From Lingula anatina (taxonomy: Eukaryota; Animalia; Brachiopoda), in the NCBI GenBank assembly GCA_051362555.1, contig CM120645.1, forward strand, positions 8,866,001 through 8,930,000: a stretch of 64,000 bases of DNA, in the 5' to 3' direction. The notes beneath the pieces are model-generated. The model saw only the letters and a program-made list of their open reading frames with translations, did no database searches and was not told where the DNA came from. Below, piece after piece: positions 9,401-39,014 of the stretch. How positions within the stretch are numbered: the stretch's first letter is position 1; each line of letters opens with the position of its first letter. The position numbers and the translations under genes were made by a program.

Positions 9401-9840
9401 ACTTTTTAATTTCAAGTTTAAAAACATAAGCTGCCTTTGCAAGAAAAAATATGAAATCCGCAAGAAGGTGCCAGTTTGCTGTGATGAGGCATCGTTGAAC
9501 TGCACTTGTTAACAACGTAACTGGTCTGTTGAACCGTTATTAACTTAATTTTTAGCTTGGCTTTTATCATGCCTGCACTGAAATGTCATGAATTCTCTGG
9601 ATATTTGACGCTGAACCTTCATCAAATTTTCAGTTTCACTTGCAATTATTAGCAATAAAAGGCACTTTTCCCGTATGATCTTGATGGTACGTAAAGCAAT
9701 ACTTACGGTGAGCTATAACATCGCACATTATGCTGTAGTATTTGTCGTCGAAATGCTGCAAGCGTGCACAGCACTGTTTTTCCTTTGCAAAGCGGCATCT
9801 TATGCAAGGCGAGAACGAATCTCATTTTGCAGAAGATCAT
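6495..9840 (-). CDS. NDUFAF3: Mitochondrial complex I assembly factor 3 (Mth938-like domain); exons 9840-9707, 9383-9167, 8300-8234, 7822-7722, 6860-6495
   Basis: All introns GT-AG and phase-consistent. Basic N-terminal presequence-like peptide, then GFILNNGIRVLGSVAMFPKTILHWN-VYSPQEITEESLSLF-DMLVLGIG-YNFLVSEGRYVAGAFIP, matching the remembered NDUFAF3 motif order. Confidence 0.9.
6911..7183 (-). mobile_element. Degenerate tRNA-like (Gly-GCC-like) sequence or SINE in a NDUFAF3 intron, flanked by a 14-bp direct repeat
   Basis: Minus strand about 7138-7066 has A-box-like TGGCCAAGTGG, CTGCCAA loop, B-box-like GGTTTGATTCCC, then a T-run; stems are mismatched; tgatacctgtcaca at 6911-6924 and 7170-7183. 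Confidence 0.5.
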
Positions 9841-11807: not shown

Positions 11808-14345
11808 TTAAACCGGATCTTTTGCTAGACTATAAGGCGAATCGTTGGCTGGATTTTCGGTCGGATCATCTGGTTGACTGTCACCCGGATCATTCTGTAG
11901 ATTTTCAACTGGAACTTTTGCTAATCTGCGGGGCAAGCTACCTCTGACGTTAGGGCTATTCTCTGCTTTCAGCGTCTGCTCACCTTCACGATGAGACAGA
12001 GGCGTCTCGTACTCGCCCGCACTTCCCTCATATTGTCCCTCCTCCGCCACTGGGCTGTAGTATACGTTACCGTCTTCCACCGCGGAACTTTCCTCTTTCT
12101 CGCGCGGGTTTTGTGGCGTCTCATCACTGGTATTGACAATGTGGTCGTAAGCGTACTCGTCGGGAGGGTCTAAGGTCGCGTACAGTGGGTCGTCGTATTC
12201 GTCGTGAGGGTTGTAGTAGGCGTTGCCGTCGCTCGGCTTGTACAGGGAGTTGTTTTTAACCAGAGTTTTGGCCCGACTGGATTCTATGTGGTTAGGGTTG
12301 TAAACCGAACCTTCATTGGTAAAGCCGTGGTCGTTTGCCTGCTGACAGAAAAACTACGTATGCATGAGTTATATCTAATAAAAAGGAGTCCATTCAACAG
12401 GAAAGTTGTTTAATAGGGCATATTACATGCCTAACATAATCTCTAAATGATAACCATGCAGTCAGAGGATTTTTTAAAATTTCTTTTAAGATTTTTTATT
12501 TTCCGGAAATTAACTAAGACTCGCTATATATCAGTGTATTACCAAAAAATTTAACTGGAACAGATGATTTGTTGAACGAATCAAAAGGAAAAGGTATTCC
12601 AGTAATCAGTATATCCCGAATCAGAAATATTCAATTTCGCCGCAAAATTTATACGTGCAACAAATCACCAGTAAACTTATTTCATCATATACAAGTCAAA
12701 ATGCTTTAAAAAGTTTCTCAACTCACCGTGTCTGCTGAACGCTTCTTGGTGACTCGGTTCCAGATACTACAAAAAGACAGGTTTTGAGAAATAAAATGAC
12801 GTAAAGGTATAGTAATACATAAAAATTATCTAATTCTAAAAACCTCTTTTATTTATCCATCTCCTTGGATAGAGACATTTACATTCTATTACCCATGTGG
12901 GTTTTTATATGGAACATCCAGTCTACCACCCCGGGGAGGCGAGAACGTGGCCATCATTTCACCTTGCCTGGCTAGTCATGTATGTGTATCTTAACCAGGT
13001 GTCTATTCTATATCCATTATATACAAATATATCTCTCACGTACAAATTCATCCAAGAATTGCAATGGCGTTATAAAGTTATTATTATTTTTATTATTAAC
13101 AAGTGTTAAGGGAAAGCAAAAGTTCATTAAGACCTGTTTCTAATAAGTTATAGATCTAACAATAATTATTTTTATTATTATTAAAATTTTAAGGTAAAGT
13201 TATTATTGTTATTATTATTATTATTATTATACCTGAGCAAGAGCTCTCTTTTCCTCCACCATAAAACCCCAATCACGAGAACAACAAGAAGGACGAGGAG
13301 GACAACGATGACAATTGCCGCAATGGCGCCACCGTCTGTACCACCGCCACCAGCGCCCCTAGCGTCAACACCTGGGCCAGGGGGAGAGGAGCTGGCATCA
13401 CCCACCACCGGCGGGATTAAACCTTTAGAGACTGTTGTAGCAGTAGTAGTGGTGGAACCTGTGGTTGAGCAATTTGTCTGTTGGCAATAGTGAGGTGCAT
13501 CTGATTTGCAGCCAACCCCAGAAGAACAGTTATGTAGCGTCCAATTGCCGCCAATGCATCGAAAGAAGGTTTCACAGTTTGCCGGGTTTGGTAAATACTC
13601 GGTTTCTTTTCCAACAGTGTCACAAGTGTAATTAGTGTATCCACATGGAAGTGAATCTGAAATAAATATTACTCAAATATGATCATACAACCATAAGTAA
13701 TTTTGCACATATATTTTAATAAAACCACGGCTATCAGAACTTAAAGATATTTGAAATCAACCACATATTTAGAAGAAGAAAAAAAAAAAAAAAACAGCAT
13801 GACCAGCGAAAAGTGAAATCTGCTTCTTTTTCGTTTACCAGATCTTCCTGTTCAAACATGTTACAGCACGTTCTCCTGACCCACCCTAACAACGTGACAA
13901 AAACGCGCGAGTTTCTATAAAGTATGGACCCGGCCTAGAGTATTTGTATGGTCCAGGTGTTAGGGATACATTAGAAAAGAAATCCCGCAATACAAAGTAA
14001 CTGCATGCAGTCTCAGACCCTTTCTCATATACGTTGCCATCAAATGAAAGGAGCGCAAACGCACGCGTGATTTGTGTCAAAATAACCCCTTGAGCTGTCG
14101 GCGAACTCGACTCCTACCTCTGCTGTATCGACCCAATTATGAACCTTACTGATGAATATAAATAAACAACAGTAGCACGATTTATAAATGTATTTAAGTA
14201 CATCTTCAATCAAAATCAATGCTTGCAGAAATTTATAGCTTACTTTAGGAGACTTAACTTTCGTATTAAATACTACAGGTGCATACTCACCAGTTGATTC
14301 TGCAAAGAAAAGAACAGCTAACGCCACGGCCAGATACCTGTACAT
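11808..14345 (-). CDS. Paralog A: type-I membrane protein with signal peptide, chitin-binding type-2-like Cys domain, Thr stalk, TM and Tyr-rich tail; exons 14345-14291, 13656-13233, 12766-12727, 12341-11808
   Basis: MYRYLAVALAVLFFAEST; PCGYTNYTC...PANCETFFRCIGGNWTLHNC...; TM GGAIAAIVIVVLLVLLVVLVIGVLWWRKR; tail with KNNSLY and about 13 Tyr; intron phases 1/2/0 consistent. Confidence 0.8.
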
Positions 14346-15074
14346 GTTTATGTCACAAGAAGTGATTAAGTGTCCCATGACTAACGATCGATGGCTTGCC
14401 TCGATGACACTGCCTGGCTTGAAACATCAGTCCAGTGAGAACATCTTGATGGCCGTATATTGTCACTTTTTAATCTACGTGGCGTTATGTTTAAAAGAAG
14501 GTTATGAAACTTTTGAAGCGTACCTTGAGTAGCTCACGCTGTCAGCACCGTCGCCATTTTGCACTATTATGTTTGTGCAACGCAGGCCAAGTCTACACAA
14601 TAGGTTATAGAAATTGTATAGATTAAGGGACTTCTTGAGCATGTGAGTAATGTTGTATATATAGATTATTTGTGTCGTGAAGTTCTGAAGCGTCGGAGAT
14701 AAGTTTTTATTTATAAGGTGCTTGGGCGATCTGCTGTTGTTTTAGGGCCTACTTGAGATAAAGACCGACGTTTAAAATATTGAACGCTTGAAATGAATGG
14801 GGAATCTTGGATGTGTTATTCGGATATATTATCGGCCCTTCAAACTTTTGTTCGAGTTGTTAAAAATAATAACAATGTATTCTACGCAGGTATTTGGGTG
14901 GTTCACGCAGCAGGCGGATCAATTGGATTTATACAGACTCATGGTTACTTTTTCATATCAACTGTTTTAAAACATATGCATCCGATTTTTCTTTCTTTTT
15001 TCCCTTAAATTTTACGATGTTTGCCATTATAATGCGCTATTTGATACCAGAGTAAATGTAAAATGAGAGGTGCA

Positions 15075-15175
15075 TTATCTGACACTTCTTTATGCATTTC
15101 CGGAACGAACGACGACCCTTCATCATTATCTGACGCTTCTTTATGCATTTCCGGAACGAACAACGACCCTTCATG
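15075..15175. repeat. Two-copy direct repeat of about 51 bp
   Basis: attatctgacRcttctttatgcatttccggaacgaacRacgacccttcat occurs twice in tandem. Confidence 0.8.
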
Positions 15176-15428
15176 TTCGACCTGTAAGCGTAATAAGAGA
15201 CACATCTGCTCCGTGAAAAATGCGTACCCATCCTGTGTCAATCAAAATAGTCTTCTTATATTGAATAAAAAGCATCAATTTTGTAAAATTAACATGAATT
15301 TTCTTTCGGTCGAAGCAAGGAATATGACCAAGCTAATGTAGACTGCTCTTTCGTTACCAAGGGGCGAGCGTTACCATGGAACCGGCGTATATAATCAGCA
15401 AAGTCTGTTCTCTCACACTTAACGAGGT

Positions 15429-15486
<58 letters not shown>

Positions 15487-16285
15487 GCTCACGGTCTGGT
15501 TATAGCTATGTTAGATATAATTTTTCATCCAGCGAAATTTCGTACTGAGTCGTCTTTATTTGTCGATTTATTATCTGGATTATTATCTGAATCTCAAAAT
15601 ACCAAGATTTTAAGCTACAGTGTATAACGTCGAAGTTAGGATTTCATATTTTCAAAACTGTATATAACTGTATATAAATCGGACAGACATTAGAACAATT
15701 GTTACAGTCAATGGAATGTCTCAACTTAATAGACTGAAATATAAATACATATAAATATCTGCAACATTTTACTAATAAAAACGTGTGCCAATCTGCTTAG
15801 AACAAAGCACCTCGCAATTTTGTGATATGGTATGTGTTGTAGGTTAGAATATTACTTTTACCAAAACCTAAATACAAAAGCTCTTTCAAAACTTTGTAGT
15901 AAATTCCACGGATAAACTGTGATGCGGATTTTAACATGAGAACGGAGTGGTTTTTATACTCATTTGATCAAGGAAAATCGGGAACTTTTGATGGAACCTT
16001 TTTCAAATAAATAAATATGATGTCGTGACGTAAGAAAAAGCCATACTTGCCCAACATTAGAAAGTACCATAGGCCTATCTTTTTCACAGATTAAGTTGAT
16101 TTAAAACATAAAAAATTTTCACAGACAAAGTTAATTTGAACTATATCTCCTTTCCAAATAAAGTTAATTTAAAATGTACCAGATTCCTCCTTTACAGAGT
16201 TTTTTATCTTTATATATAGAGTTTATTAAGTTCGTTTACTGCTACATGTAAGTATAGGGGGATCATACTTTTAAACTCATTGTGG

Positions 16286-18254
16286 TTAAGTTTTATAATG
16301 TGCGCACTCTGCCGGGTTCTCCAATACATAATAATGGGACTTCTCCGACTTTGATCGCTCTTGGTTCTCGTCACTATTTCTGATATTTAGATTCACCTCC
16401 TCGTAATTATGCGGCAAATTCTTCTGGTCTCTTGAAGGATTTTCTAATTGCAGAGAAGCACTTGCGGTATCCGAGTCCGTTTCTACAGGAACATCGTCGT
16501 AATGCACAGTAGTCTCTGGAATTTTTGACAAAGGCTCCACTTCTTCATAAGGGTTCGGCGCTCGAGTCTCTTCGGTAATTTTAGGAAGAGTTTCCACGAG
16601 GTAAATGGGTTCTGCCTCACTCGGAGAGTATAACGAGTTCTCTTTGATAACTATAGATTCTGTAGTCGGTCTTTTAGCGTCGCCTTTTATTGGACGGCTG
16701 TAAAGTTGACTTAGGTCCTTTTCCTTTTCGTCTAGTTGAGCATTATGTATATCTTGTGTTTGCTTTAAAAATGGCGTCTGAAGCATGTCTGAGTCTTGAT
16801 ATGTTGGATCGTTCTAAAATAAAATTTCAATTTAGGACAACTTATAATTGGATGAAACTATACCTCCATCAGTTTCTACACTAAGTAGATAGTTACCCAA
16901 ATCGTTTCGTTGTGCCATATCAGCAGACGCACGATGTGGACATTTTCTATATTTTAAAAATACTTTTAAAAACCGCTGGTTAAAACCATCAGAAAAGCGC
17001 TAATCAAAGCCACTTGGAATGGCCTTTTATAGTTTCATCGTATTTACTATTCGGTTCTGCTGCGAAATTCTGACTTCAAAGCTAAGATTATTGGGACCAC
17101 ATGTAGAACTAAACGTATTTAACTGCATCCCCCGCACCGCTAGCAGTAGAGACAACGTCTGACCCTGAGGTCTAGTTCACAGACAGCCGTTCATGCAACT
17201 ACATAGATTATTGACAGCGGCTTACAACTGAAGGCGACTACCTCCCTCATTTAAACGACTAAATTGTTTCAAATAAAAGGGTGTCCTTACCATGTCAACG
17301 TTACCTCCGCTTTTGACCCTTTCTTTCTTCTGCCTCCTACAACTTAAAAAAGTAAGAGAGGCAGATAATTAGATAAATTGTGTAAATTATTTGTATATAT
17401 CATAATTTCATTTCCTAAGGCAACTTGGATATCTCGCCTTGTTTCCAGCTTGGGGCCCTTTAAACCTAATGTGATTTAAGTGAGATTGGAGGACACTGGT
17501 TTCAACGCAGCGGTTTAACAGTACTATTTTGATAAACAGAATAATGTTGCTTTTAGATCCAAATCACGGAAAATATAGATAAAAGTGATGGAATCTTTTG
17601 TCCCTGCCTCCATGAACCGATATCAATTTCTAATATCAATCGAAACAAGTTTCTGTTAAATTCCGGCTACCCTGCAAGCAATGTTTATTGATTTGCAAAT
17701 TTATACCCTAAAGACTTAAGTGCCGTGGTGGGGGTGGGGGGGGGGGGCGTAGCCTCTTACACACACTGTTGACAACAACTTCAGTCATATAAGCGCAGGA
17801 AACATGGGGTCAAGAGGAACTCCCCTTCATTGATAATTGTTTTTTTTTCTAAATGAACCCACTAAAATTTGATTCTAGATAGACAGATAGATAGATAGAT
17901 AGATAGATATTACCTTGACATGGAGTGTCCCCTCGAGCACCTGCAAACAAGCTCCACTAATACAATAGTCACGACTACACCGCCTATCACAGCTCCAGCC
18001 ACCACCCCAGGAGCCAGTGCACCTTCCTCTTGGGCTGGAACTTAAATATGAAACGAAATTATGATTTGGTTAGATTATTGAAAAAATGAATGCACTATTG
18101 CATTGAAAGAATTTATATCTTCGCAATAGTAGCCGAAGTGGAGAGAGAGAGACTGGTAGCCATTCAGTGAGTGTCGCATCAGACTAAAAAACAAACGGAC
18201 TGCAGGCATACAAACAAAATAATGACGACAGACAGACAAAAGGAAAGCAGATAA

Positions 18255-18291
<37 letters not shown>

Positions 18292-19736
18292 GAAAGAGAG
18301 AGAACAAACCTAGATTGGGTGTCGTAATGTCACTCATCGACGTCGTCGTCGACGGCTCAGGCAGCTTCACAACCTTCGTCTCATACCCCCGGTAGGGTAC
18401 GAGCACACAACCCCCCGTCACCTGTCGACATGTACGCGTACGCCTCTGTACGCAGTCCCCGTCCAAAGCCAATGGATTATTGATCTCAAACAAGTACGGA
18501 GTGTCCGATAATTGCTCAGGGCACCATTTCTCCGTCCAGCGCCATTTCCCCGCCGTACCTGTGTCTTCGGTAAACCTGAAGGCACATATGAAGAACCGCC
18601 GACAGTCTCCGGGGAAGGCCACGCGTTTGCCATTGAGATCTTTATCACAGTTTAAGTCAGGAGAGCCACATGGCCGTCTGTGATCTAAAAGGTGAAGTAA
18701 TGCAGATTTTTTTTATCAGAAACCATGGGATATATGTCACACGTATTACATACTATTTACATACTTTTTAAAACACTACTGTATATCGGCAGTGGCGTTT
18801 ATAATTGTCACGCCATGGATTTTATAATATAGGCCTATCTGCCGAATTATCAACGCACTTCCACGGTTTGTATTGTGAATATGTGAGTTTGTAATGTATA
18901 TTTACCATGTGCATTTACCGGTGATGACGGTTCGGAAACGCCAGATGCAGGGCTCGTGGAGTGAACGGTAGAGGGGCTGGCAGGGCCATTCTGTGCTAGG
19001 ATTGTGGAACGTCTTACTCCTTCCTCTGATAGAAAAAAAAATGATGAATTTATTACAATAATAGTAGTATAAAATGTAGATAGAATACATAATGTACGTC
19101 CACAATTTTGAAAAAAAGACTTGAAGTGTCACAAAAAATGTTACTCACATCCGAAAACATAATCTGCCACTACAAACAACCAGTTAGACATCACCATCAA
19201 TGACCCCCAACCACCCTCTCTTTCTCTCTCTCTTTCTCTTTTTCTCACACTTACAAACACACAGAGTGCATAATATCCCCCTTCTCTCCTCTCTTTTTCA
19301 ACTGTACGTGTTTTTCACATATATCCTTTTGTACCATTACAGCCGTTTCATACCCGCATGGCTCCATTAATAAGTTACGTGATACTACCTTACACGTCAG
19401 AATCAATAACGAAGTTCGTAACGAGCACAGCATTTCTATTTTACATCAATTCAACGTGGCTGTGGATGGAATATGTAATTTTGCCAGAGATCTCTATTTA
19501 ACCACCCCACGTTTACCGACACAACACACACAAATATAGATAAAAAATTGAAAACTTTTATCATTATCGTGTTGAGTCATCTATGATGATGAACACTAAT
19601 AACCAACTGTACGTGTACCTGTGGTCGTCAGAGTGGTTGTATTCTGCTGTCCACTAGCCATAAAACGTACAATGAGGACCAAATAACATAAGAAAGGGCC
19701 AACGTGTTTGTGGAAACCCAACGCTATCCTTGCCAT
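16286..19736 (-). CDS. Paralog B: same receptor-like architecture; exons 19736-19619, 19025-18906, 18684-18310, 18040-17914, 17336-17291, 16813-16286
   Basis: Signal-like MARIALG...LVLIVRFMASG; PCGSPDLNC...AFPGDCRRFFIC...W.W.EKWCP; TM GVVAGAVIGGVVVTIVLVELVC; tail NDPTYQD...KENSLY...YEEV, YDDV; all GT-AG and phase-consistent. Confidence 0.8.
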
Positions 19737-20973
19737 TTTCACGACGTCGACCAACACCGGCTAGTTAAAGATGGAGATGTGGACGCAGAGAGAGCTTTTA
19801 CATCACCATTTTTATCTCAGTCTTGTTGTATATGATGGCCCGCGAGCGGCTGGCGTCGATTTGTGTGTAACACCGTTGAAATCATACCATTCCACGTGTT
19901 TCCTTGCCCGGTAGCGCAACTCTTACAACCTATATCGCCATTTTTGTCATACTTAGCAGCGGGCGCTGACCCAATTCATATTGTAGTAGCTTAAAACGTT
20001 AGTCAACAAGATTACTCACGCGTAGACTACGCTTACCTGTATGGCGTCTTAACAGAGTCAAAACGTGCGTAGCGCTTAACTGTAGAAGCACGGTGACTCA
20101 ACGGGTTTTGTGTGAAATGATTCTTTGTGTTTGATGTGACAAAGGAGAACAAAACAAACAAGCTGATCGTTTTTATGTCTACACTGCTGATACAACAGGC
20201 AGACAAATAAAGGTTAGCGGTGATCTTACTTCGAATCATATCCCGTGTTCAAATCAGAACACCCTGTGGATGCTTTCTATCCACACTCGTGCGTCTTAAA
20301 ATTAAAAGGTCTCTAACAGCTCTTTTTTAAATATATTTTATTCAAAATCATGACGAAAAAAATATTAGAATAATTCCAAATATTAGTAAGTGCATTTTAA
20401 GACATACATACATATATGTATATAATCTATTACATGTATATCTACACAACATGGCAGTGGGACTTTGTACGATAAAATCGCTGAGGGTGCATATACTATT
20501 GATACTTTTGTCAGCTTGTGAAGAGCCCTAAGTCAATGGTTCGACAGAAAGGAAGTCCATTGCGCTATCTCCCATAAACCCTGTACTACATGTACGTTAA
20601 AAATCAGTCCGGCGCGCGACCTGTGTCACGGGGGAAAGGCATGTGAAGTCATAAGCAAAAGATCTAAAGGCAGGGACTAAAAAGGAAGATCGATTTATAT
20701 TCCTTGAAATATATTGATGATTTGACAAATAGAAAATGGCTAATAAAATTGCTACCACTAATCGATTATTATGGAAAAAAGTATTGTAAGTTATGAAAAA
20801 TTACTGGACACACCTTTATAAACGGCTCTCAAAAAAAAAAAAATCTTATCAATATGCCCTGTTTTTATAAGGTATAAAATCCCAATGTGACCAGCACGTG
20901 GTATAAAATTATTTTCTAGTAATATTGGAATGTATGAATGGAAAGCAAATAATAGTTCACCAGCCGGTGAAAG

Positions 20974-23184
20974 CTAAGCGACGCTGCTTTCTTTTAACTG
21001 GGCAGTATTTTCATACACCTCAGTTGAGCGTTCTAGTTCACTGTACGGGTGAGGTTCAGATGCAGCCACTACAAGATGGCTATATCCAGATTCATCCGTA
21101 CTGCTTTGTTTACGCAGAACCTTAGCATATGGAGGATGTTTCGGTTTCGTTTTCAGCTCAGGTGTCATAGATTTAGTGCCCGTGTCGTGTCTTTTGATTG
21201 AATATCCAGCTAAAGTTTCAGCTACCGTATCATAATACACGTCATCTGATCCCACGTGACCTGCCAGGTCATAGTGCGCTTGCGCGGAAGTGTTGTCGTC
21301 TGCTGGAAAAGCAGGATTGTCGTTTGACGCCAAAGAGTATGTTGGTTCTGACTGGGGGTCATCGGCAAAGTGATATACTGGTTCTTCTTCGCCATTGTCG
21401 TTGACGGAATACAATGAATTAGCTCGGTGCACAAAAGCTGGACTTTTCTGCACTTCATTGTTTTTGTGAGCTGTTGCCAAGATCGTGGCTTTGGTTCTGA
21501 GAGGTTCTGGTTGCGAATCGTTGGCGTAAGTTTGGTCAGGCAGTTCTGTGTAAATATCCTCAGAATCAACGATATACGTGGGTGATTCTATTCCTCTTTT
21601 CTCGGAGTCCCGGTACATCGGATCGTGCTACGGAGTAAAAGAAAAAAAATGTCGAGAATTAAAGGCTTAATATCAATTGCAAAAACCCCACATTGTTTTA
21701 TATTCAAGTTAAAAATATTTTCAAAGAGTTTTTTAATGTTTCAGTTACTCAATACTTCACTAGACGTCTTCTTCCTAGATTTTATCTAGCAGACAATTTA
21801 GAAAAGTAGGGGGCCTACAATACATATGTAACACATGTTACAAATTAATATTATCAATGGACATGGTTAATGAATTACAGAAACAACACACCTGAAGCGA
21901 ACATATGTTTATGCAATATTTAGTTAACATATGGAAAATAAAAAATAAAAATTACCATATCAACAGCGCCTCCCTTGTCCTTCAGTTTCAATCTCTCGAA
22001 GATACTGAAAAAAAAAGAACAATACGGAAAGGGCACTTTTATGCGTTACTGGTTTCACATTTTATTCAAAGTCCATAAGAAATAGCTGAAGAAATAGCAT
22101 CAATCTCTAGCTGATGCAAATAGCCGTAGGTTGTGACGCATATGCTTTCTCTGTGGCGTCATGGATTAAATAGTAAGTAGCTATCTTTATTGTACTTTAT
22201 TACACAAGCCCAATATCCTATCTGAAAAGACAAATCAATGCAACTGTAGTCTTGTAAACAGCATAACAGAAAAACAAACACCTTGGAATATATACATTAT
22301 ATATACCTGAGAATGAAAGAAGACAACTAGTTTACCTTAGCACCCATTCCCTCCTCCGCCACCAAAGAAATCCCACCAAGATCAAACCCAGCACGAGCAA
22401 GGAGCCGATCACTCCGCCAGCGACAGCACCGCCATCTACACCGCCGGTTTGCTTCTCTGTTCTTTCGGGAAAGTTTCCTGAACTGTTGCTTGGTAACGGA
22501 GATATACTTGGACTGCTTGATGGAGGGTCTGAAGGCGGTGTTGGAACAGACGTTGATGATACTGTAGATGTTGATCTGGGTGTTGGCGTTGTTCTTGGGG
22601 TGGTTGTGGTCGGAATGGTGGTTCTTGGCGGTGGCGTCGTGGTTGGCGTCGTAGTTGGTGTGGTAGTTGGCGTGGTGGTTGTTGGCGTTGTGGTTGTTGG
22701 CGTGGCGCAAGGTACGGGAGAACAATCCGCGTTCAACTGACAAAATCCTGTGAGACCGTAAAGCGGGACGAAAGCTCTTTTTCTGCCACAGTTATTTTTC
22801 TCCCATGTATATGTCCCATCTCCGGTGAAGACGCATCTGAAGTATCCCAAATAGTTAAGATCAGGTCAGAACCTATGTATAAGCAGGGTAAACACGTGCT
22901 TAGGGCGCCACGGCCAAGGGAGGGGGGGAGCTATTGGAATTAAAAGGTCAATCAAATAAAAGTGAAGATGTTTAATAACAAATAAAAAATATTAATTTGG
23001 ATGTCAGATAGAAAAGAACAAAAGCATGGAAGAATATACGAGAATGTTGCCGTTTTAAAGGTTCCTGAAAAATTGTCGTGTAGAGAGTACCTGAAGTACT
23101 TCCGGCAATTGCCTGGAACTGCGAATTGCCCTTGCGTATAGTCTATGGCAGTACATACTCTACTGTTGTATCCACAAGGCCAGT
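20974..23184 (-). CDS. Paralog C: same architecture; exons 23184-23091, 22836-22336, 22004-21956, 21627-20974; signal-peptide exon unresolved (candidate near 24715-24767)
   Basis: WPCGYNSRVC...FAVPGNCRKYFR|CVFTGDGTYTWEKNNC...CSPVPC; long PTTT mucin stalk; TM GAVAGGVIGSLLVLGLILVGFLWWRRR; tail HDPMYRD...RANSLY...YSHL-x9-YSEL. Confidence 0.8.
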
Positions 23185-24476
23185 CTGAAAATTTAAAACG
23201 ATGTTGGTTCTAAAAGTATGAAACTCAAATGTTATCTCTCATTTTCTTTTATCCGATAACTTAAGGTATCAAAAATGATCATAATTTTTTGTAGTAAAAT
23301 GCCTTGAGTTATTTGTAAAAATATATCTCATTTATCTCAAAATATTCTTTTCCCTACAAAAAAAGTAACTAAAGATCGCTATATAATTTACGTCTCTTGA
23401 CTTTTTAATTATTTATTCATCTATTACACTGCATTTTCATTTTCATCATCCGTTTCAATCCATGAATCAGGACCACAATTGATTACACATGGGAACACCA
23501 TTCCCTTCCGAAATTAAACGTTTTGCTGAGCAACTTGATATAAATCGCAAATAAATGAATAGACATAAAATCATATGACACGGATTATTTTCTATTTGAG
23601 ATAGTGTTTCAGTCTCTGTTTAAACAGGGCACGGTGTGTGTACATGGAATGTTGACATAATTACAATATAAGGCGTCTGTTAGGACGTCATACAAGTGCC
23701 CGTCATCGAACTAGTATTGGACAAACGGTATAGGCTCCCCTGTAAACTGGATTTATTTGCAATGTTGTAGATGCTTATTCGGCATGAGATCTGGTCAAGT
23801 CACAAACAAAATAATATGTATTGTTATATAGAAAATGTTTAAAAGAGAATGATTATATATACAACTACATGTACAGCAGTAAACCGCCATGGGTTTAGTA
23901 AGCCATCGTTGGTTTTGTAAGCAAATACTAAACGAGCCAATTCACGTAACGTGAGGCGTATTAAACCATTCTAGTTCTTTTTGTTTAAATATATAAATGA
24001 TGAAATATGCATGAAACGGAAATTAGTTTACCATCTCGGGTTTTAGAAATGTCAAATAAATAAAATAATGCCGGCAAAAATTAAAGGAAAAGTTAAGAGT
24101 AATTGGTAAAATTATTATGTTTTACTCTTAAAAGGAGGTACAGCGGTTGGATGAAAGCTTTTTAAAAACCGTTTATTTCCTCTAAAAGGCAAAAGTCTAT
24201 ATTTGCATGGGAGAAATTTAAAAAGCTCATCAGCAGGATGAGTAATATCGTTCATAATATTTCGGTTTTGGAAGCCACCCTTTACATGTAAATGCTTTTA
24301 AGAGAGGGAGATCCAACCTTACGATTCTTCTGCACTTCTCAGTAAGTCCATTTTATTTATGAATATCCTGCACTGTGGTTCGTCCATACAAAATTGTTAG
24401 GTAGGGCATTTTGATGGACTAATTTTAATAAGTCGGCAGTAGAATATTGCTGCAATCTGACAAGAAGCTTCACTCT

Positions 24477-24511
<35 letters not shown>

Positions 24512-24537
24512 AACACACTTACGCGCTCTCTCTCTCA

Positions 24538-24576
<39 letters not shown>

Positions 24577-27276
24577 GTTCTCTCTCTTTCTCCTTCGATG
24601 GCATCGGATTTGAATATAAAATCTTTATTGCCATCTGGGAATTCTTAGCTGTTAAATATAGTAATTGGTTAAAGGCATAAAGATGAAAAGATATAATTTC
24701 ACTAGAATTTCACCTATCCACGCTCCAAAGCGCCCAAACCATGAATACTCTCAACCTTTGAATCATCTTTTCTCTTGTTGCAAAATGAAGTCTGTCAACT
24801 GGCGACCATGCTTCCACCGAAGTAATTATTATCATTAACTTACTTGCCGTTGGTAATTATATGTATATGATATCTTGTGGATGTTGGTGATACACTGTAT
24901 GTAGATGTCATTTTTTGTAAAATTAAACGATAGCAATATGGACCCAGTATATAAGCTATGCGCCATCACATTAACTGTACTCGAAGAACCTACATGTATA
25001 TATATATATGTAACTTTTAAGAGTAACTCACACTTAGCTGTGTCAGGTTAACTGCAGTCTAGCATTAAATATATGCGTTGATGGCGGTGACATAATAACT
25101 GCACCTTGTGTAAAGGATCAATAAATGTACAGGTCAGCTTATACATACTATAGTATAGATTAACCGGATTTGCTGACCGGGAGAAAAGACCCTTGAATTT
25201 AGCCCTGGTATCAAATGACCAGCCGGAGTAATGTTTTTATGGTTTGTTTGCAGCCAAATTTTCAAGTTTGTCAGAATGTGAGAATGGATGATATGAGAAA
25301 GAAACAACTATGAGTAAAACAGCATCCTGATCGTCCGCGGTTGTACCGTGCCTTTATGTTTATATGCGAGTGTGTGTGTGTGGTGTGTCTGTGCTTTAAC
25401 ATTAAATCTTTTGCGGTTATCACGTTAATTGTTAAAAAGAATGAAATACTGTAACACGATTTTGGGTGTTTTTAGTTTAAATTTTCATTTAGAGAAACAT
25501 GCCCTAGAGGCTAAATATGTATATATATTGGAACGTAATATACCCGTGTAACTCCACAAATATGCGCCTTTTGTAGAGACATCTGAGTATTAGTCTGTGT
25601 ATTCACCTGTACAACCCTACTATACAATGACATACACTGTGCAAGTGTCGACCATGTCAGACACACTTACCTTGAGCGTTAACGGTGGTTGATATATTCC
25701 ATAGAAATAGACAAATTACTCCACACAGCCTGGTAAACCAGTGCAGAGATCCGCGTTTTAATGTCATCATCGGCATGAGGCATCCAGTGCCTTGTTATAT
25801 AAAAAATTATGTTTGTATGAAAGCCACTGAGGAGTCTAATTCTTTTCCCTAACGTCCACAGCAACAATAACTAAGAAAATGATATTTTCATTCTGTTCTT
25901 AAATAAAAACATGTCCCATCTTCGACAAATAAGGTTGTGACCAACGGACGTCTTGTGGTCAGTCTTCAACCGCCCATCGTAGTGGTCAAATATGCCCAAG
26001 CAAGATAATGGTGGCCGCACACTGTGGCCCAAGTGTTTACTCACTGATTGTCACGTGATCGGAGACAAAGACGCTGATTCAAAGGTAAACAATTATAGGG
26101 GCGCGGAAGTGGAAGTTTTGACACGCTGCTGCAGTATAAAGTCTATTGGGTTGGGTCATAATGTCATAAACAGATACAACGGGTCACATTCTTTGCGATT
26201 TCTTCGCTGGAAGAAGGTAGGAATTATACCGGTGCCCCTACACAGTCCTAAAGTACCGTGACTTCGCAGTTATTTTTTCCCGAATAGAAAGAGTCTGACA
26301 CGAAAATACCTGTAGAAAACACGGCCTACAATGACATACTAGTACGCTAACGTTAGTTATGACGTTAGTTTAATTATAACATTTTATGGGCAGTTTGACA
26401 ATATTTTCGTTTATACCGTATAAGGCTGTTGACAAAAAATACCTCTACTTTTTAAGTTTTTCCGAAAAGATAAATAAGGTGACAAGTCTCCTTTCGGCAA
26501 GGAATCTGCAGTATTTTTCTATTTCTTTTTAAGATTAAATAACAGAACTGGGCATAATGAACCTCGGGTCAAAACAAAATATTGTGTTTCACTTGATTTT
26601 TTCCTACGGCAAATGTTTTAGCAAGTGACAGCTAGGTTTTGGAAAGAAAAACGCACCAATTTATAAGACCATCGACAAAAATACATACAATTTTTTCTGT
26701 TGGCACAATTGCGCCAGTTTTACTCGAAAAGGACCTGCGAGTTATTTTAAGTACAGGCGATTTCGAATATATGTGCTAATAATAATAATATTATATCTGC
26801 GCTAATAATAATAAAAGTGCACTCACGTTTATTCAAGCAGGGCTGTATTAGAGATAGACCCTTCTCAAGTGTATTTACTCATCTTGACCTACTCTGTTTT
26901 AAATTCACTTATCTTATAATTCGAACTCAGGATTAATTTGCAGTTAGTCTTCTTATCAATGCTGACTCAACTTAAAAATTAGTTCTCTAGAAAAATTGTC
27001 CCCCAACGGTGAATATTTTATTATAACAATAATAGAAATACAGTTGTCAGGCTTAAGCATATAAGTATAATACAAGATTTAACTATCACAGATAGTTTTT
27101 CTTTTGTTTTATTTCAGAATTAAAGAAAGGAATTCACCGTTCTGTGATAGTTAGACCAGTTGTTTCACTCGCTTGGCATTGCATATAACCGGTAGTAAGC
27201 ACTGATAGTCTTTTTGCAGATTAATATAAAATTCAAACTCGAATGTCATGTCATCGTGTTTATTGACACACACACA

Positions 27277-27324
<48 letters not shown>

Positions 27325-27384
27325 CACTCACACAAGCACAAGGTCATTATGCACATATAATATCAAACTGAAAATTAAAATAAA

Positions 27385-28831
27385 TTATTTTGAAGTTGGT
27401 GTATTGTAACTAATTAATTCTAAATAACAAGGTTCTGTCTCGTTGATATCTGCCAGACCAATTTTCTCGTATTTCATACCCTCAGAAATCCTGCTGTAAT
27501 AAACATCACCATCCACGTGCTCACGTGACAGATCCTCATATTCGCTCCCATTTCCACACTCTTTAAACCGCGTTCTGTCCAACGCAGAGTTTTGGTGCGA
27601 GTACGCATAGGAATACACGTTGTTACCATTTTCCCCCTGGGTGGGAGGAGTTATTGGGACATGGTATATTGGGCTCTCCGGTCCACCTAGGTAGAGGGAA
27701 TTCTCTCTCATTTCTACTGGTTCATTGCCCTGTCTGGCCTTATAAGTTTGTGCATACGTCCCCTTTATATTACCCTCTGAGTCATCCGACAAAAGAACTG
27801 CCCGACTGTCGGTGCTACTTCTCCGGTCATCTCCGCGGCCATAAAGGGAGTTGTCTTTCAAATGTAACTGATCAGAATTATTTTTCTTGTCCACAGGAAG
27901 AGCGGTGTGGTAAAGGGGGATATTTTGGTAAGTGAGTTCTGCCATATTTTTGTCCTTGGCAGATGTGTTGTGTCTTTGCTGTGTGGTTTCTCTGGGACTT
28001 GGTTCGTTCATTTGGTCATCTGTCAGCTTTAGATCGGAGAAAATGACTTCAGATGGGTTTTGATACGTGTTACGATCCTAGAAATAATGAGGTGACAAGG
28101 CAATATACATGTAACTCTGTACAAAATAGTTACTGGGATTTTCTAGTAGAACAGAAAACATAAAAGTTCTTATCTGTACTGATAATATCCATTCCTCATT
28201 CATACAGTATATATAATATTTCGTTTAATTAACAAAATAGTAAGATTTGTGAACTGCAACTTTCTAAAATTCATTGGATTATAATATTTTAACTGAAACG
28301 TTTATTTTATGCAAACTTACATGCATCGGGTCTGATTTTGCAATTCCCTTTCTCTTGGTTGAACATTTAAAAATCCTGAAAAGAGTAATACAAGTAGATG
28401 GGTCAAGGTGTACACACACACGCACGAACACACACACGCACACACACACACACACACACCACACACACTGTAGGATTTGTCTATAGGGTACCTGTATATG
28501 TAAAACTGGCTGAAATAGATATGTACATCGAGTGGGTCAGGTTAATAAAGTAAAAGAAAAAGATATGTGACCCTCACAAATGTGTTTGCTGAAGATATAA
28601 ATGTTTCTCGAGTTACAGTCACGACTGCGGTTAGGCTGGGATCATAAAAGGCAATGGAACAAATACAATTGTCAGGCATTAGCATATGGGTAGAATATTA
28701 ATTTGGTTTTCTTTTTTATTTGTTTCAGAAATGAAGAATGGAAAACTTTCTTTTATAAACCACTACCGCGCGGTACTAAACTCCTTTTTGCAGATTAACA
28801 TAAAATACAAATGTCATGCCATCGTGTTTAT

Positions 28832-28901
<70 letters not shown>

Positions 28902-29212
28902 AATAATGATAATATTAAAATGAAAGTGAAATTATTTTGAAGTTGGTGTATTGTAATTCATAAACTCTAAATAACAAGGTTCTTTCTCGTTGTTATTTGC
29001 CAGCCGTTTCTTCAGTACTATTTTCTATTAGTAGGCCTACACTGATAGCGTATGGAACGAGTGGTTTCTCTATAAACGGTAGACAAAGTAGGCCTGTTTA
29101 AAATTTTTGATTATTATATGTTCAACGAGCATTGCCGCTTAATGTTAGAAATGGACGGTGCTTAAATCCAGTTATGTTTTTGAGGAGAAGAACTGTTAAA
29201 TCCACAGTATGT

Positions 29213-29243
<31 letters not shown>

Positions 29244-29355
29244 GGGGGGGGTTAAAACATAAAAACAACAGCATTAATTTAAGTTTTTCCTGGGGTCAAT
29301 CGTAAATTTCTCCCGCTTACCAAACCGATACCCAATGCATACAAAAAACAGGTGC

Positions 29356-29415
<60 letters not shown>

Positions 29416-30788
29416 TGGGCCTAAATTAAAAAATAATAATAGGGGCCTAAATTAAAAAAATCTGAGTTCCTCAATACTAGTGTCAGTCGCGCTCGTCCAC
29501 CAACTTCTCAATTTTGGCTGACCAAATCACAAAATGAACACCTACTTCTTGACGTGCTCTCGTTTTTTCCACCAAAGCACTGCAAACATTGTGAGTACTG
29601 CAATGAAGAAAGCGGTCAGCACTCCGGCCACTATGGCAGCGCTGGACGTTCTTACGTCATCTGACGTAAGCACTGGTGTAGTTTCGTTGCCAGATGGCAC
29701 TGCTGTAGGCATGTCTGGGAGAAGTGACGTAATGGAATGGGATTCTGAAACTGTTATAATAACATTTATGACGTGAAACTGAAAAAAATAAAAATAAAAA
29801 AATTAGTAAACCAATTATAGGCAAACAAAAGCCGTACGTAGAAAAAAGTATCGATATTGAATCTGTCTGTAAAATAAAGGCACAATTAACTTTTACTTAG
29901 GGCCATAAATACAATTTTATTTTGATTTCATTTGTGTTTTGATATTAAGAACACACGAATCTTCACGTAACACACGCGCACACGTATCCTAACTAGATAT
30001 CAGAATACCGATACGTACTGGTGGTTGTGGCTGAAGCTGCCGTGCTTTCTAAAGTTGTTGTAACTCTTGAAGTAGTTGATGGACGTACTGTTACTGTAAC
30101 CGATGTCCTTGGTTGTCTTGTTGTTATTGTTGTTGTTGCTGCTGCTGTTGTTGTAGTTGTTGTTGTTGTTGTTGTTGTTGTTGATGTTGATGTCGTCGTC
30201 ACACAAGTCACGGGACTGCATCTAAAACCCTGCCTACAGCTCCCTCTATAGTTGCTATGGCTTATGATAAAAGCGGACTGCCCCTTACATCTACGTTCCT
30301 TCCAGGAGTAGCTTCTACGGTCTCTGTTTTGTGCACAGACAAAGTATTTTCTACAGTCTCCAGGAAAAACGAAATGGCCTTGTACATACTCCTGGGCACT
30401 GCATGCTTGGCGGTCATAACCACACGGCCATTTCGCTGGAAATAAAGAAAAATGTAACCAAATGAATTTTCTGGATGGTTAGGCCTATAGAAAGTCCTGT
30501 TCCAATTTATTTTGAGCTGACAACGTGCTTGAAATGGGTATAACATTTAAATGTATACAGCTACAGACAAAAAAGAGTCATGCATGCCCTCTTTAACGTG
30601 GTATCTCGACAACACTGGCATATTGAAAATCTTGCCTTATTTTTCAAAGTAATATTAGGGAATTTACTGAGGTCAGCAATTTCTAAAGGACTTTATTTAT
30701 TTTCTGAAGAAGTAAAAATATGTACCCAGTAGTTGATCATACAAATTGAGAAACGGCATAGAGCGTGGAAAACTCCCCCCCCCCCCCC

Positions 30789-30836
<48 letters not shown>

Positions 30837-31656
30837 CCGTAGGGTCCGGTGAATCTAACGTTTGGTTTTATCTTGTGTGGGTCTTATCACATACACGGGG
30901 AATTTCTTACTGATATACGTTATATGCCTTTGCCTACGAAAAGGATTCACTGAATCTGCAATGTTATCGCCAGTTTTCACATAGAGCTACGTATACGTTC
31001 GTACATAATCGTGACATTAAACATTTCAAATAGCAAACCCTGCACTTTGCTCTCCATAGACGACTGACTACATATAAAGTACATCCTTCATACAAAAATG
31101 CGGTTGATGAGTGCTATAAAAATAAATCACTTCAGTGTTGCAAGGTCAAGTTTTTTTTAATCTTATATCAGCCTAGCGTGTTAACAAGTACTTGTGGACA
31201 TCAGTAGGGCATAAACGATATCAAAACGACAAATAATACTTATAGCCTACATGTACTGGTATATGCACTTCTACTTGACTCATGTTTTGGGAAGAAGTCC
31301 AATTTCTAGCATATATGTGCTCGCACAGTATACATCATATAGTGTGTATACACGTAAAATTCTCTCTTTTTTGATTATTTGATTACACCCTCTCCAGACT
31401 GAAATTCTTCTTTTTCTCATCGCAAGGACACCTTATATACATTCTACCGCCCTCTTAAAATTGTTAACTATGAATGTGTGAAATACTGTAGATGACCTGT
31501 CCTACATATTGAGGATGAAATGTAAGCCACGAAAAGAACGTCAGTGTTGAGGAATCCAAGCATTGCTTGCTTCCTGTCTATGAATAAAAAGGCATTACGT
31601 CGGGTCATGTTAAAGGATTAAAACCTTAGGCTCGATTCCATGTTTAATGCAAGTTG

Positions 31657-31695
<39 letters not shown>

Positions 31696-31931
31696 AATAA
31701 TTCAAGGTTATTTCATAAGTCATTTGTTGTAATTATTACTACTACCAAGCAAGGAGTGTTCTGTAACTTTTGACAGAAAGTGAACGACCAGTGCATATGT
31801 CTGTTTTACATGTACCACCCCCTCTCCCCCCACCCCCAGGCACCCACCCCTACACACAGACCCGACTCACCTTTCTGCATGGTGACCACCGCCGAAATAA
31901 AGAACACTTGGAAATAAACAGGGATATTCAT
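27385..31931 (-). CDS. Paralog D: same architecture; exons 31931-31871, 30435-30019, 29750-29546, 28635-28578, 28077-27385
   Basis: MNIPVYFQVFFISAVVTMQK; KWPCGYDRQAC...FVFPGDCRKYFVC...YSWKERRC...CSPVTC; poly-Thr stalk; TM AAIVAGVLTAFFIAVLTMFAVLWWKKR; tail with KDNSLY and RENSLY; phases consistent. Confidence 0.8.
28700..29005 (-). pseudogene. Diverged duplicate of the C-terminal codons and 3' UTR of paralog D, lying inside an intron of D
   Basis: Encodes LANNNEKEPCYLEFMNYNTPTSK* versus LADINETEPCYLELISYNTPTSK* at 27385-27455; shared UTR blocks and AATAAA. Confidence 0.75.
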
Positions 31932-33125
31932 GGCAGCTCAATGTGTCGTTTGTCACTTCTCTGCCCGCCCAGGTAACCAGAATTCCTCGCTCGTTAAGTC
32001 CTATCATTTATAGAATAGGGTAATTAATCCATCTTGTCTCATAAATTTCCCTGTGATTACATACATATACATGTACGAGCTCCTTGGCGTATCTATTAAT
32101 TCAAGTTTTCTGCCGTCTATATGATGTTGGCATTTAGTCGGCAAATGTCGCAACACTTTTCGTGTTGTTTTCTAACCTAATCAATTGAATTCTAGGGTTT
32201 CAATATAAGACTATACGTACGAGTATGTGTAGGTCTGTGTATATAGTCCCCCAAAACTGACAGCGTCTCTTCAAAGTACCTCCGTTTCTTCAATCCAGGT
32301 CGATGAAAATAAGGTAAAAAAGCTTGTGAAACTTATTTTATCACACTCCATGCCACTCAGGTAAATATTTCACATCCACGTGACCATACATAAAGAAGAT
32401 GGCCCCATTTTTTACCATTGTCGGTATATAACTGGTGTGAAAAGCCGATAAAAGTGTCAACGAAGGTCATCGTCTTCTTCCGCAATGAGTTTGAAATCTA
32501 AAAATACCACGATAAGGACCGTCTCGATAAGGACATCAACTGGTATCCCTGGATACGGTAAATGAAAACACAGCCTCTTGCGTTAGACCATTAGAATATT
32601 ATTCGTCGGTAAATTGCTCCAAAAAGACCCGTGTACAGCTTGTTCTAGCCTCAAAGTGCTGCGTACGTCTTACTCATAGCAAGGACTTATGAAATAATGA
32701 TAATGTGTGCGTCATGTTCAGAGTGGGAGTTCACCTTAAGCAGAGCGCGTTTTAACGAATGGCGGTCTGTAGAATAAGGAAGTAAGCGGAAGAGAAAACA
32801 AAACAATGCGTTGTGAAAGATGAAACTTGGGTTAAAACAACTTATTAGTCATGCTTGAATTTATTGTAGTGGGCATGCAATGGAATAGCTGTGAAAGTGG
32901 AAATTCGGTTTAAAACAACTTGTAAGCTTTGACATTAAATAAAGTACTGTAACTACACCCTCTACCAGGAACACAGATGCGTTTTTCGCCAGATATTAAC
33001 ATTAAATGTTTTTCTGTGGCCAACTCTGTGCTTATCTTTGTGCTGTCCACCAAGAATTTTTTTCACAGGATTTCATTAAAAAATAAAACGTTATCACAGA
33101 GCTGACTTCTGGTAGGGATTAACAG

Positions 33126-36802: not shown

Positions 36803-38544
36803 TCAGTCAACCTTTTTTATCTTCATGACAGCCCAACGAAGCAAGGCGTTCTCATTGTCGTTGTTACTACCAGGCAGGCCATTGTGCTTAAACCACGGCC
36901 AACAGTCCTTCTTGCATTCTCCTGGAACGGCCATTTTGCCGGTGAGAGAGACCATTGCGCAAAAATTGTACCACCAACCTCCGCGGAATTTTTCGCTACA
37001 ACGTTTACCATAGGTTCTGTCATTAGTAGAAAACAACATGTCGAAACTATAGGACCAAAAGTTCCCTTCAGACAGGCTTCCAGATCCGCGCAAAGATTTG
37101 TGCAACACATATTTCTTCGATTCCGGGCCTATGCGAAAACCGTGATGGATTTCCCAGTAGTAATTGTCAGTGAGCAAGCTCCTTACTTCGACCATTAAGG
37201 AGTAGTTTCCCTGGTTGGTGAGATGATGAAACGCTTCCAGTCCCAGCCAGTGGTCGCCGGCAACGTCATCGAATCCGTTACGGTAATCGACCCAAGGCCT
37301 ACAGTGTATATGAGTAAAAGTCAAAATAAAACTATGTCGTCTTTTATTTATCTCCAAAATCAAACGTGAGCCAAGCTAAAGCACTCTATTACACAATGTA
37401 TGTAAATTAAGATATTCTGTTCTCTCCCTTATCTATTTTATCTTCGAAATTTAAGAAAATAAATTGGAGAACACGAGAAGCAGGGTTGAGTAGAATTATC
37501 GTCATTAACATGAACGTTTACCGATCATTTACGTTAATTGCTGTACTAAATAATTACATACCACTCCCCTTATAAAAGAAAAAAATGATTTTTTAAAGAT
37601 TCACATCAAGACAAAACTGTTGCCCTTTTGGAATCTTTTTGGTTAAATCCGGCCATACCTGTTAAAGTTTAACTCAGGTTCTGTTCTGCGCATCAGAACC
37701 GTCCACCCTTCCTCACATGATACCCGGAGTTGTCTATTCATAGAGTTGACGTTAATACAGTGAACGCCATCCAACCCAACTGGAATTAAAATGACAGAAA
37801 TCATAAGGAGACCAACGGACATTATAAGAAAAAAAAAACGGAATGATGCAAATAGAGACAGAAAGAGAGCCATGGAGATAAAAGGAAAAACACACATCAC
37901 CTTCACAGAGAGATTAATAAATGGAATGGAACATAGGTACCATTTAGGTGTATTATCTCAGTGATTTTTTAAAGTATCCTATAAATGTGCACATTAAAAT
38001 AAAAACTTACTATAATTACCGCAGTCGTGTGGGACCTAAAACAATATGAAACAAGATATTAGCGAACGTTCTGCGGGCGTTAATGAGAACACAAAATCAT
38101 AATATAATGATAATAATACAGATTGCCTCCGTACTGTTTTCTTCTTCGTGTATAAAGTTAAAAAGGTCTTTGAACCTTGGTAGTGCGACATAAGAAGACT
38201 ACTGGTACGTTACATACCTTTGTGTAATATCGACTGGCGCTATCGTCACTAAGGGCCATTTTGGTGGGTGTGAAATCAACTGCGGAATTCAATTCACACA
38301 CGGTGTTGTCAGATCTTACGTTGAAAGACTTGCACTCTGGGTTTGCCTCGCATTCCGCTGCGCATTCTATCCTGCTTATTCCTCCTGGTTTTTCTCTGCT
38401 TTCTAATACAGCATTGGGTAAATACTTTCCTGGTGTACCATAAAAAATGTCGGGTCTTGCTGTAACGCCGTTTTTCGTGCCCGTGTTTAGCCCACAAGCA
38501 ATCGTAATGAAAATAGAGAAGCGAATAAAAAGTGTTGATCGCAT
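36803..38544 (-). CDS. Secreted PAN/apple-domain + fibrinogen C-terminal domain (FReD) protein; exons 38544-38218, 38035-38020, 37779-37659, 37298-36803
   Basis: Signal peptide; PAN motif SRIECAAECEANPECKSFN...CELNS; FReD motifs GWTVLMRR...FNR.W.DYRNGF...HWLGLE...FSTND...C...GGWWYNFC; phases consistent. Confidence 0.88.
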
Positions 38545-39014
38545 TTCTGTCATGACTGCTTGCATACAGCTTTTAGTCAGAATGAGAATGACACAAAAAA
38601 TCACCCAGATATCTACCGCTATGGAAATGTATATGATTGATCAGTAAATTGGGAATTGTTGCTAGGTAACTTCAGTCCATGATTGAAAAAGCCTTACGTC
38701 ATATGTCTCCATGTTTGCATTTCCCACATAGCTAATGAATAAAGCTTAAAAATGAAAAATTACTGTACTTATCATATTACATTTGCCTCGACACGATATA
38801 CGAGAAGGTAAGTATTATTCGCGCATACATGCATGTATTCAAATTATTAGGAATTTTCAAAAGAAATTCACACTGCTTTTTATTTTTCGAATCCACAATT
38901 AAAGGAATCCGTAGTCCGTTTCCCATTACCTTCGTCCTTTACAGTTTCCATTTTCTCCACTTACTGAGCCCGATTTGTACTTCTGGTTAACCCAAACCAT
39001 TGAAAATTAACACT

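Follow-up and report, generated by a model that had tools for sequence, protein, structure and literature searches.

A tandem array of four genes was analysed in a window of 64,000 nucleotides from the brachiopod Lingula anatina (assembly GCA_051362555.1, contig CM120645.1), where a first-pass annotation made from the letters alone had described diverged receptor-like genes. In our judgement the encoded proteins are very probably tyrosine-motif signalling receptors of some sort. The explanation that we favour, at slightly better than an even bet, is that they are non-catalytic receptors of the Lingula lineage, which recognise a variable non-self ligand through a predicted, repurposed CBM14 domain.

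As modelled from the window DNA, the four minus-strand genes encode 350, 439, 467 and 476 amino acids (genes 1 to 4), with GT..AG introns and no internal stop. Gene 1 (11808..14345) consists of exons 14345-14291 (signal), 13656-13233 (Cys domain, stalk and transmembrane segment, TM), 12766-12727 and 12341 or 12338-11808 (tail), the last having two acceptors 3 nucleotides apart, with RNA joints for both. Gene 2 (16286..19736) comprises exons 19736-19619, 19025-18906 (an extra Ser/Pro/Thr exon), 18684-18310 (Cys domain), 18040-17914 (TM), 17342-17291 and 16813-16286 (tail). Gene 3 (20974..25776) is made up of exons 25776-25671, 23184-23091 and 22836-22336 (a split Cys domain, followed by stalk and TM), 22004-21956 and 21627-20974 (tail), and gene 4 (27385..31931) of exons 31931-31871, 30435-30019 (Cys domain and stalk), 29750-29546 (TM), 28375-28321 and 28077-27385 (tail). 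In each of the four, the Cys domain is preceded by a phase-1 intron and the TM is followed by a phase-2 intron; next come a short juxtamembrane exon (40, 52, 49 and 55 nucleotides in genes 1 to 4) and a phase-0 tail exon, which encodes 177, 175, 217 and 230 residues with 13, 10, 15 and 17 Tyr, respectively. The first-pass account of same-strand genes with a common exon logic, and of tail exons of 175-230 residues with about 10-17 Tyr each, was thus borne out. Its phase-1 domain exon and Thr/Ser/Pro stalk held as a shared plan with two departures: the gene 3 domain is split by an intron, and gene 2 has merely a short stalk, with its additional Ser/Pro/Thr exon lying upstream of the domain. Each protein has an N-terminal signal-like exon, a Thr/Ser/Pro stalk and, by hydropathy, a single strongly hydrophobic internal segment, and a type I topology without a catalytic cytoplasmic domain was predicted for all four genes.

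The intron inside the gene 3 domain (22837..23090, minus strand, 254 nucleotides) is present in none of the three paralogues and has an 8-nucleotide direct repeat at its ends, compared with 0-3 nucleotides for the remaining 15 introns; it looks like an intron acquired through insertion or repair. A partial duplicate of gene 4 (28784..29012, minus strand) lies within the third intron of that gene and contains its last 26 codons (69% amino acid identity), which remain open, and the 3' untranslated region, the two copies being 76% alike over 250 nucleotides. It showed no RNA depth, ruling it out as an expressed alternative last exon. No fifth member of the array was detected within the window by tblastn or by hidden Markov model (HMM) searches. 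Gene 2 was 99% identical to XP_013394659.1 and gene 4 was 95% identical to XP_013394660.1, both of them Lingula anatina proteins labelled 'uncharacterized', the latter with the same stalk-TM junction as our model. Genes 1 and 3 had no match in the protein collections searched, although the RefSeq genes 2 and 4 carry consecutive locus numbers; the two may be unannotated, lie in a gap, or represent presence/absence variation.

Transcription was assessed with RNA reads from seven runs that carry the same species label, four of them thin and about 99% like the window, while the other three supplied most of the joints. Over positions 12050-32049 the latter runs (X7-X9) were only 90-95% like the window in spite of their label, which suggests that they derive from a strongly diverged population or a cryptic species. 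Among the joints listed, 12 of the 16 introns were seen (two of three in gene 1, three of five in gene 2, all four in gene 3 and three of four in gene 4), two of them offset from the model by a few letters because the reads came from the diverged population. All four joints were found in gene 3, which therefore has its signal exon, domain, TM and tail chained, as the RNA check proposed in the first-pass annotation had called for, with the proviso that joints seen in short reads fall short of proving that one transcript carries them all. The stalk-TM intron was supported by a loose read end in gene 2 and by an approximate joint of three reads in gene 4. The TM-juxtamembrane joint was absent among those listed for gene 1, where it lies within a skipped repeat, and for gene 2, where the same joint is present in the RefSeq protein. 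Each of three RNA samples contained transcripts of all four genes, and chance open reading frames were ruled out, since the genes are spliced and expressed.

The four tail exons matched no Pfam family above the cut-off, and a receptor kinase or phosphatase was ruled out, as no catalytic domain is present. Together they contain 55 Tyr, 7 Phe and 0 Trp in 799 residues, and their motifs were counted against 10,000 composition-preserving shuffles. The strict immunoreceptor tyrosine-based activation motif (ITAM, Yxx[LI]x6-9Yxx[LI]) was found twice, with 0.11 expected (P = 0.007): in gene 1 as YxxL-x7-YxxI (12138..12182, minus strand, residues 227-241) and in gene 3 as YxxL-x9-YxxL (21034..21084, minus strand, residues 432-448). 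Under a relaxed definition the count rose to four (0.19 expected), the two additional ones being in gene 4, whose tail has four tandem Yxx[LI] motifs. Sequences resembling the inhibitory counterpart (ITIM-like, [ILVS]xYxx[ILV]) numbered eight and were distributed over all four tails (1.9 expected, P = 0.0009). The gene 2 tail has no ITAM, strict or relaxed; it carries three Y[DE][DE]V and two ITIM-like motifs, its motifs ending in Val. Five copies of [KR]xNSLY, present in all four tails, contrasted with 0.00 in the shuffles (0.03 expected for NSLY), and this counts as evidence because the tails are otherwise only 23-30% identical in pairwise comparison (shuffle Z 1.1-5.5); we take the site to resemble PTB-docking NxxY sites, such as RET Tyr1062. 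YxN was not enriched (5 vs 3.8 expected). The enrichment over shuffles, together with the absence of a catalytic Pfam domain, agrees with the Tyr-rich, non-catalytic tails of signalling type predicted at first pass.

The YxxPhi motif occurred 17 times (9.3 expected), as would suit endocytic or scavenger lectin-like receptors that use it mainly as an AP-2 or lysosomal sorting signal when taking up particles or glycans and signal little through kinases; a lectin-type fold atop a mucin stalk would suit them as well. This explanation was considered improbable, given that the four tails contain neither NPxY nor acidic dileucine signals and that 10-17 Tyr per tail, tandem ITAM spacing and a conserved [KR]xNSLY would go beyond the needs of sorting.

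The PCG-x5-C and P(G/A)xCxx(Y/F)FxC scaffold was found in all four ectodomains, the first spacing being always five residues and not the four to five first described. The CBM_14 profile of Pfam (PF01607) gave 23.8 bits for gene 1, above the cut-off of 22.1, and 20.2 and 13.7 bits for genes 4 and 2, below it; the two halves of the gene 3 domain, scanned as split exons, gave no CBM_14 match. These matches span just the first 22-37 of the 53 profile positions, and no ectodomain exon matched an Ig family of Pfam. AlphaFold2 models were obtained for the gene 4 domain (mean predicted local distance difference test, pLDDT, 74; six-row alignment) and for gene 1 (pLDDT 53; single sequence). The top 11 Foldseek matches of the gene 1 model were all CBM14/peritrophin-A, the best being CHIT1 (probability 1.00, TM-score 0.56, E = 0.024), as were the top seven chains for the gene 4 model and the top five of 11 matches in a VIA search (Z up to 3.5). 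The scores are weak and their agreement consistent; a CBM14-type fold is predicted.

The C-terminal half of the domains is not canonical. Each has eight Cys, with spacings of 6, 14-15, 5, 9-20, then 5 or 15-22, 5-7 and 4-6 residues. The six-Cys pattern Cx9-24Cx5Cx9-19Cx10-14Cx4-14C matched none of the four, whereas 49 of 55 other proteins had repeats that fit it, 312 in all. All of these control repeats had a C4-C5 spacing of 12-13 residues (within a range that the pattern itself restricted to 10-14), whereas none of the array domains did, theirs being 5 or 15-22, and only four of the 312 had a Cys at the place of the extra one in PCG-x5. An aromatic residue at the place of Trp465 (C5+2) was present in 133 of the 312 controls (43%) and in no array domain, and Pro follows C4 in gene 2 alone; a hevein face of the CHIT1 type (Pro-x-Gly-Leu pocket, Trp at C5+2) was therefore not recovered. 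With neither feature present, the ectodomain is best described as a CBM14-derived variant and not a plain member. Of the CBM14/ChtBD2-like ectodomain proposed at first pass, the N-terminal half was supported, together with top fold matches of weak score, while the C-terminal half departs from the canonical domain.

The domains of the four paralogues are 27-43% identical in pairwise comparison (shuffle Z 4.9-21), and the Cys domain of gene 4 (30200..30433, minus strand, residues 22-99) differs from that of XP_013394660.1 at 14/78 residues, compared with 5/392 elsewhere in the protein (Fisher p = 2.4e-8) and a 6-residue gap in a Thr run. The stalk, although encoded by the same exon, has only two substitutions. 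Within the domain, 9/29 residues differ between Cys70 and Cys98 (30203..30289, minus strand), the position of the hevein-like ligand face of CBM14, compared with 5/49 in the rest (Fisher p = 0.03). The minimum proportion of non-synonymous differences (pN) was 0.082 in the domain and 0.0055 elsewhere. At least 15 changes are needed in the domain, compared with 2.9 expected under full neutrality at the 1.6% heterozygosity given for Lingula (PMC4595640), a Poisson estimate that takes no account of varying coalescence times. The rapid diversification of the family suggested at first pass is consistent with these results.

The RefSeq copy of gene 4 was treated as an allelic version on the strength of a 99% identical tail and a locus number next to that of gene 2, conversion from an unseen paralogue being the alternative. 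Such a conversion, an introgressed tract, relaxed constraint or a faulty reference could have produced the divergence without adaptation, in what would then be an ordinary lineage-specific family of membrane proteins. The partial duplicate of the gene 4 3' end, a sign of local rearrangement, is compatible with this account, as are the lack of matches for genes 1 and 3 and the fact that just two copies were compared. It was rated the least probable of the explanations considered: both copies keep all eight Cys and the core aromatic residues, 13 of the 14 differences need a single base change, and the stalk encoded by the same exon is nearly unchanged. In addition, the depth of diverged-population RNA on the gene 4 domain exon was 1.1, 2.8 and 5.3, compared with 4.6-11 on the flanking exons, and the drop in two of the three runs (1.1 and 2.8 vs 5.7-11) fits the existence of further divergent alleles, with the skipped repeat as a confounding factor.

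Domain-restricted divergence is also typical of gamete-recognition and allorecognition loci such as Alr and FcoR, and the rapid change could in principle reflect fertilisation or conspecific recognition and not microbes. We regard this as very improbable, since Lingula is solitary, which makes allorecognition of the colonial type unlikely, and the four genes were co-expressed in each of the three RNA samples.

Several observations weigh against the favoured explanation. The motifs were partly picked post hoc, NSLY having been noticed before it was tested, and hemITAM and YxxM are, like NPxY, absent from the four tails; disordered tails often contain short linear motifs, and endocytosis too makes use of YxxPhi. 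The fold scores are low, with no E value under 0.001, a best Z of 3.5 and a gene 1 model of limited pLDDT. The polymorphism comes from two sequences of one gene, the second of them as protein only. In gene 2, moreover, the domain showed 0/93 differences from the RefSeq copy, with 3/345 elsewhere, and in diverged RNA it had four non-synonymous and five synonymous codon changes (among the 45 variants classified, drawn from the 40 of 167 and 40 of 609 listed). The gene 2 domain thus looks constrained, which argues against a general arms race. Its tail had 12 non-synonymous and five synonymous changes among the same variants, and in diverged RNA a sense codon stands in place of the stop (16286-16290, minus strand) and Phe in place of one tail Tyr, indicating that tail ends turn over.

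Chitin itself, which the first-pass annotation had proposed to be sensed, was judged rather unlikely as the ligand; neither the six-Cys pattern nor the aromatic at C5+2 was found in any domain. A variable glycan or protein is more likely than bare chitin: changes that cluster in the binding half of gene 4 would be better explained by a ligand that itself varies than by a polymer that does not. In human CHIT1, Pro451, Leu454 and Trp465 weigh most in chitin binding (PMC5459812), and peritrophin-A domains that do not bind chitin, those of EHEP and Der p 23, are reported together with binding residues that vary among CBM14s (10.1101/2023.06.04.543649). The missing CHIT1 motif accordingly lowers the likelihood of chitin binding as judged from the residues, and binding may still occur because binding residues differ among CBM14s.

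A related explanation is that the proteins adhere to, or sense, a chitin matrix, fastening cells of the mantle, chaetal follicles or gut to chitin made by the animal itself, with signals passing to the cytoskeleton through an integrin-like NxxY. It would agree with the predicted fold, with the chitinous shell and chaetae of Lingula, its 31 chitin synthases and perhaps a peritrophic matrix (PMC4595640), and with the recurrence of ChtBD2 domains in lophotrochozoan shell proteins (PMC13425148); the lack of conservation of chitin-binding residues between CBM14s also means that the loss of the CHIT1 motif is not decisive (10.1101/2023.06.04.543649). The missing aromatic and the absence of a C4-C5 spacing of 12-13 residues nevertheless count against it, an 18% divergence concentrated in the gene 4 binding half is not what an invariant self ligand predicts, and the ITAM and ITIM-like enrichment is not accounted for; overall it was considered unlikely. 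Reception of a variable non-self ligand remained our preferred explanation.

Relatives were sought with a profile of the family among 1.84 billion representative sequences, yielding 55 matches, two of which were the Lingula proteins (the profile being biased towards the family, this was no general survey of CBM14 with a TM). Only these two combine a single domain with a TM and a tail, and no internal TM-like segment was found in the 55 other proteins examined (53 matches and two cluster members). Among 20 named look-ups (two from Lingula, 11 from arthropods or salamander, the rest unnamed or 'hypothetical') there was no orthologue outside Lingula. Word-index searches gave no homologue of gene 1 exon 2 among 5,783 candidates, no candidate for the gene 4 domain with this insensitive type of search, and only P0003 among 7,993 candidates with a mixed alignment, a search regarded as insensitive because its positive control, P0002, was missed. 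In the ESM Atlas, CBM14 clusters came closest to the domain, at 0.87 and short of the 0.9 threshold, and the whole protein had no usable match; sequence searches of the PDB returned nothing under E = 0.1. Neither a description of the family nor its accessions were found in the literature searched, which took in few subscription journals, nor were the accessions present in one supplement file of PMC13425148, where other gene identifiers may be used. The earlier failure to recognise a named family was upheld, and the array is real, undescribed in what was searched and of apparently narrow taxonomic range.

The array resembles CBM14/peritrophin-A/ChtBD2 proteins (CHIT1, tachycitin, Der p 23, EHEP) in the P.xC..[YF]F.C of the N-terminal half, in Cx14-15Cx5C and in the predicted beta-rich fold; it differs in having eight Cys, another C4-C5 spacing, no aromatic after C5, and a single copy placed on a TM protein with a Tyr tail. 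FIBCD1 and LYSMD3 are animal chitin receptors and, as is proposed for the array, illustrate the membrane or immune use of a chitin-binding module, but their folds are fibrinogen-like and LysM, respectively, and VCBPs are secreted proteins of Ig and CBM14 domains. We know of no long ITAM/ITIM tail in any of these. To our knowledge, no homology is to be expected with FcoR of Botryllus or Alr of Hydractinia. Those, too, are type I membrane proteins encoded in clusters; their tails, which carry ITAM, ITIM or core Yxx[ILV] motifs, are more divergent than the ectodomains, and one locus is polymorphic among monomorphic ones (10.1101/2022.03.04.482883, 10.1101/2024.10.16.618699); in Botryllus FcoR7 the polymorphism lies in the extracellular region and the tails carry ITIM/hemITAM (10.1101/2024.10.16.618699). 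Their ectodomains are of Ig type (Alr; labelled Ig in FcoR) and not CBM14-like, and they comprise tens of loci in an allorecognition setting, compared with four genes in the window. The GRC/PTC1, PTC2 and LG5R regions of Biomphalaria are also lophotrochozoan tandem clusters of poorly annotated, polymorphic single-pass TM genes. The TM1 genes of GRC have a dN of 5-10% (PMC4361660), compared with at least 8% for the gene 4 domain; such high non-synonymous divergence was seen for this domain and not for gene 2, these two being the only genes with second full copies. The snail proteins have FN3 (chitinase-similar), EGF/Tie2-like or unknown domains and diverge throughout, unlike the single 78-residue domain of gene 4, and Tyr tails are not described in the passages available. 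By analogy, the array may work like FcoR, Alr and the snail clusters, belonging to none of them because its ectodomain differs.

Other features were recorded in the window. On the minus strand, 5 kb from the array, a PAN domain exon (E = 7e-8) and a fibrinogen C-terminal domain exon (E = 1e-20) at 36803-38640 probably form one secreted lectin-like gene; 42358-45478 has a weak somatomedin-B match (E = 0.009), Cys-rich regions and a hydrophobic C-terminus; 6495-9508 has weak DUF498 (NDUFAF3-like) matches at both ends of one gene; and 62721-63287, near the window end, weakly matches the amiloride-sensitive channel (ASC). A multi-exon gene on the plus strand (about 50570-59726) ends in an exon with a Thr-rich stalk, a TM and a tail of ~340 residues with 22 Tyr; we take it to be CLCA-like from its motifs, its tail being longer than we presume for vertebrate CLCAs. 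A 58-nucleotide tandem repeat of about five copies, 93% alike, lies at 47262-47550, and an imperfect inverted repeat of 340 nucleotides (68%) at 8711-9052.

A mechanism may be proposed from established immunoreceptor biology, in which ITAM binds Syk/Shark and ITIM binds SHP/SHIP (10.1101/2022.03.04.482883). Ligand binding would cluster the receptors on their stalks, and a Src-family kinase would phosphorylate the clustered tails. Tandem Yxx[LI] pairs in genes 1, 3 and 4 could then recruit kinases of the Syk/Shark type, while the gene 2 tail, lacking an ITAM and rich in YxxV, could recruit phosphatases of the SHP type or adaptors of the Nck type, and the shared [KR]xNSLY site might dock a PTB or FERM adaptor. 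SH2 and PTB proteins would relay activation (genes 1, 3 and 4) or modulation (gene 2), so that the array would form a small set of activating and modulating receptors, of which gene 4 would be the member with a diversifying binding face. That brachiopods have in it their own paired immunoreceptor system, a CBM14-derived tandem array with ITAM-activating and inhibitory or modulating tails, whose former chitin face is hypervariable under balancing or diversifying selection, is a more tentative proposal, to which we give clearly less than an even chance.

If true, ITAM/ITIM signalling would have gained one more scaffold, independently of the Ig, C-type lectin and EGF-type ectodomains already joined to it, in a phylum whose immunity has been little studied and from a domain known in animals mainly from secreted and matrix proteins. 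The array also bears on whether CBM14-based animal signalling receptors for chitin or related glycans exist. The two natural versions of gene 4, differing almost only in the binding domain, would allow a direct comparison of specificity, and this 78-residue, expressible domain may serve as a test case of how invertebrates without adaptive immunity diversify recognition.

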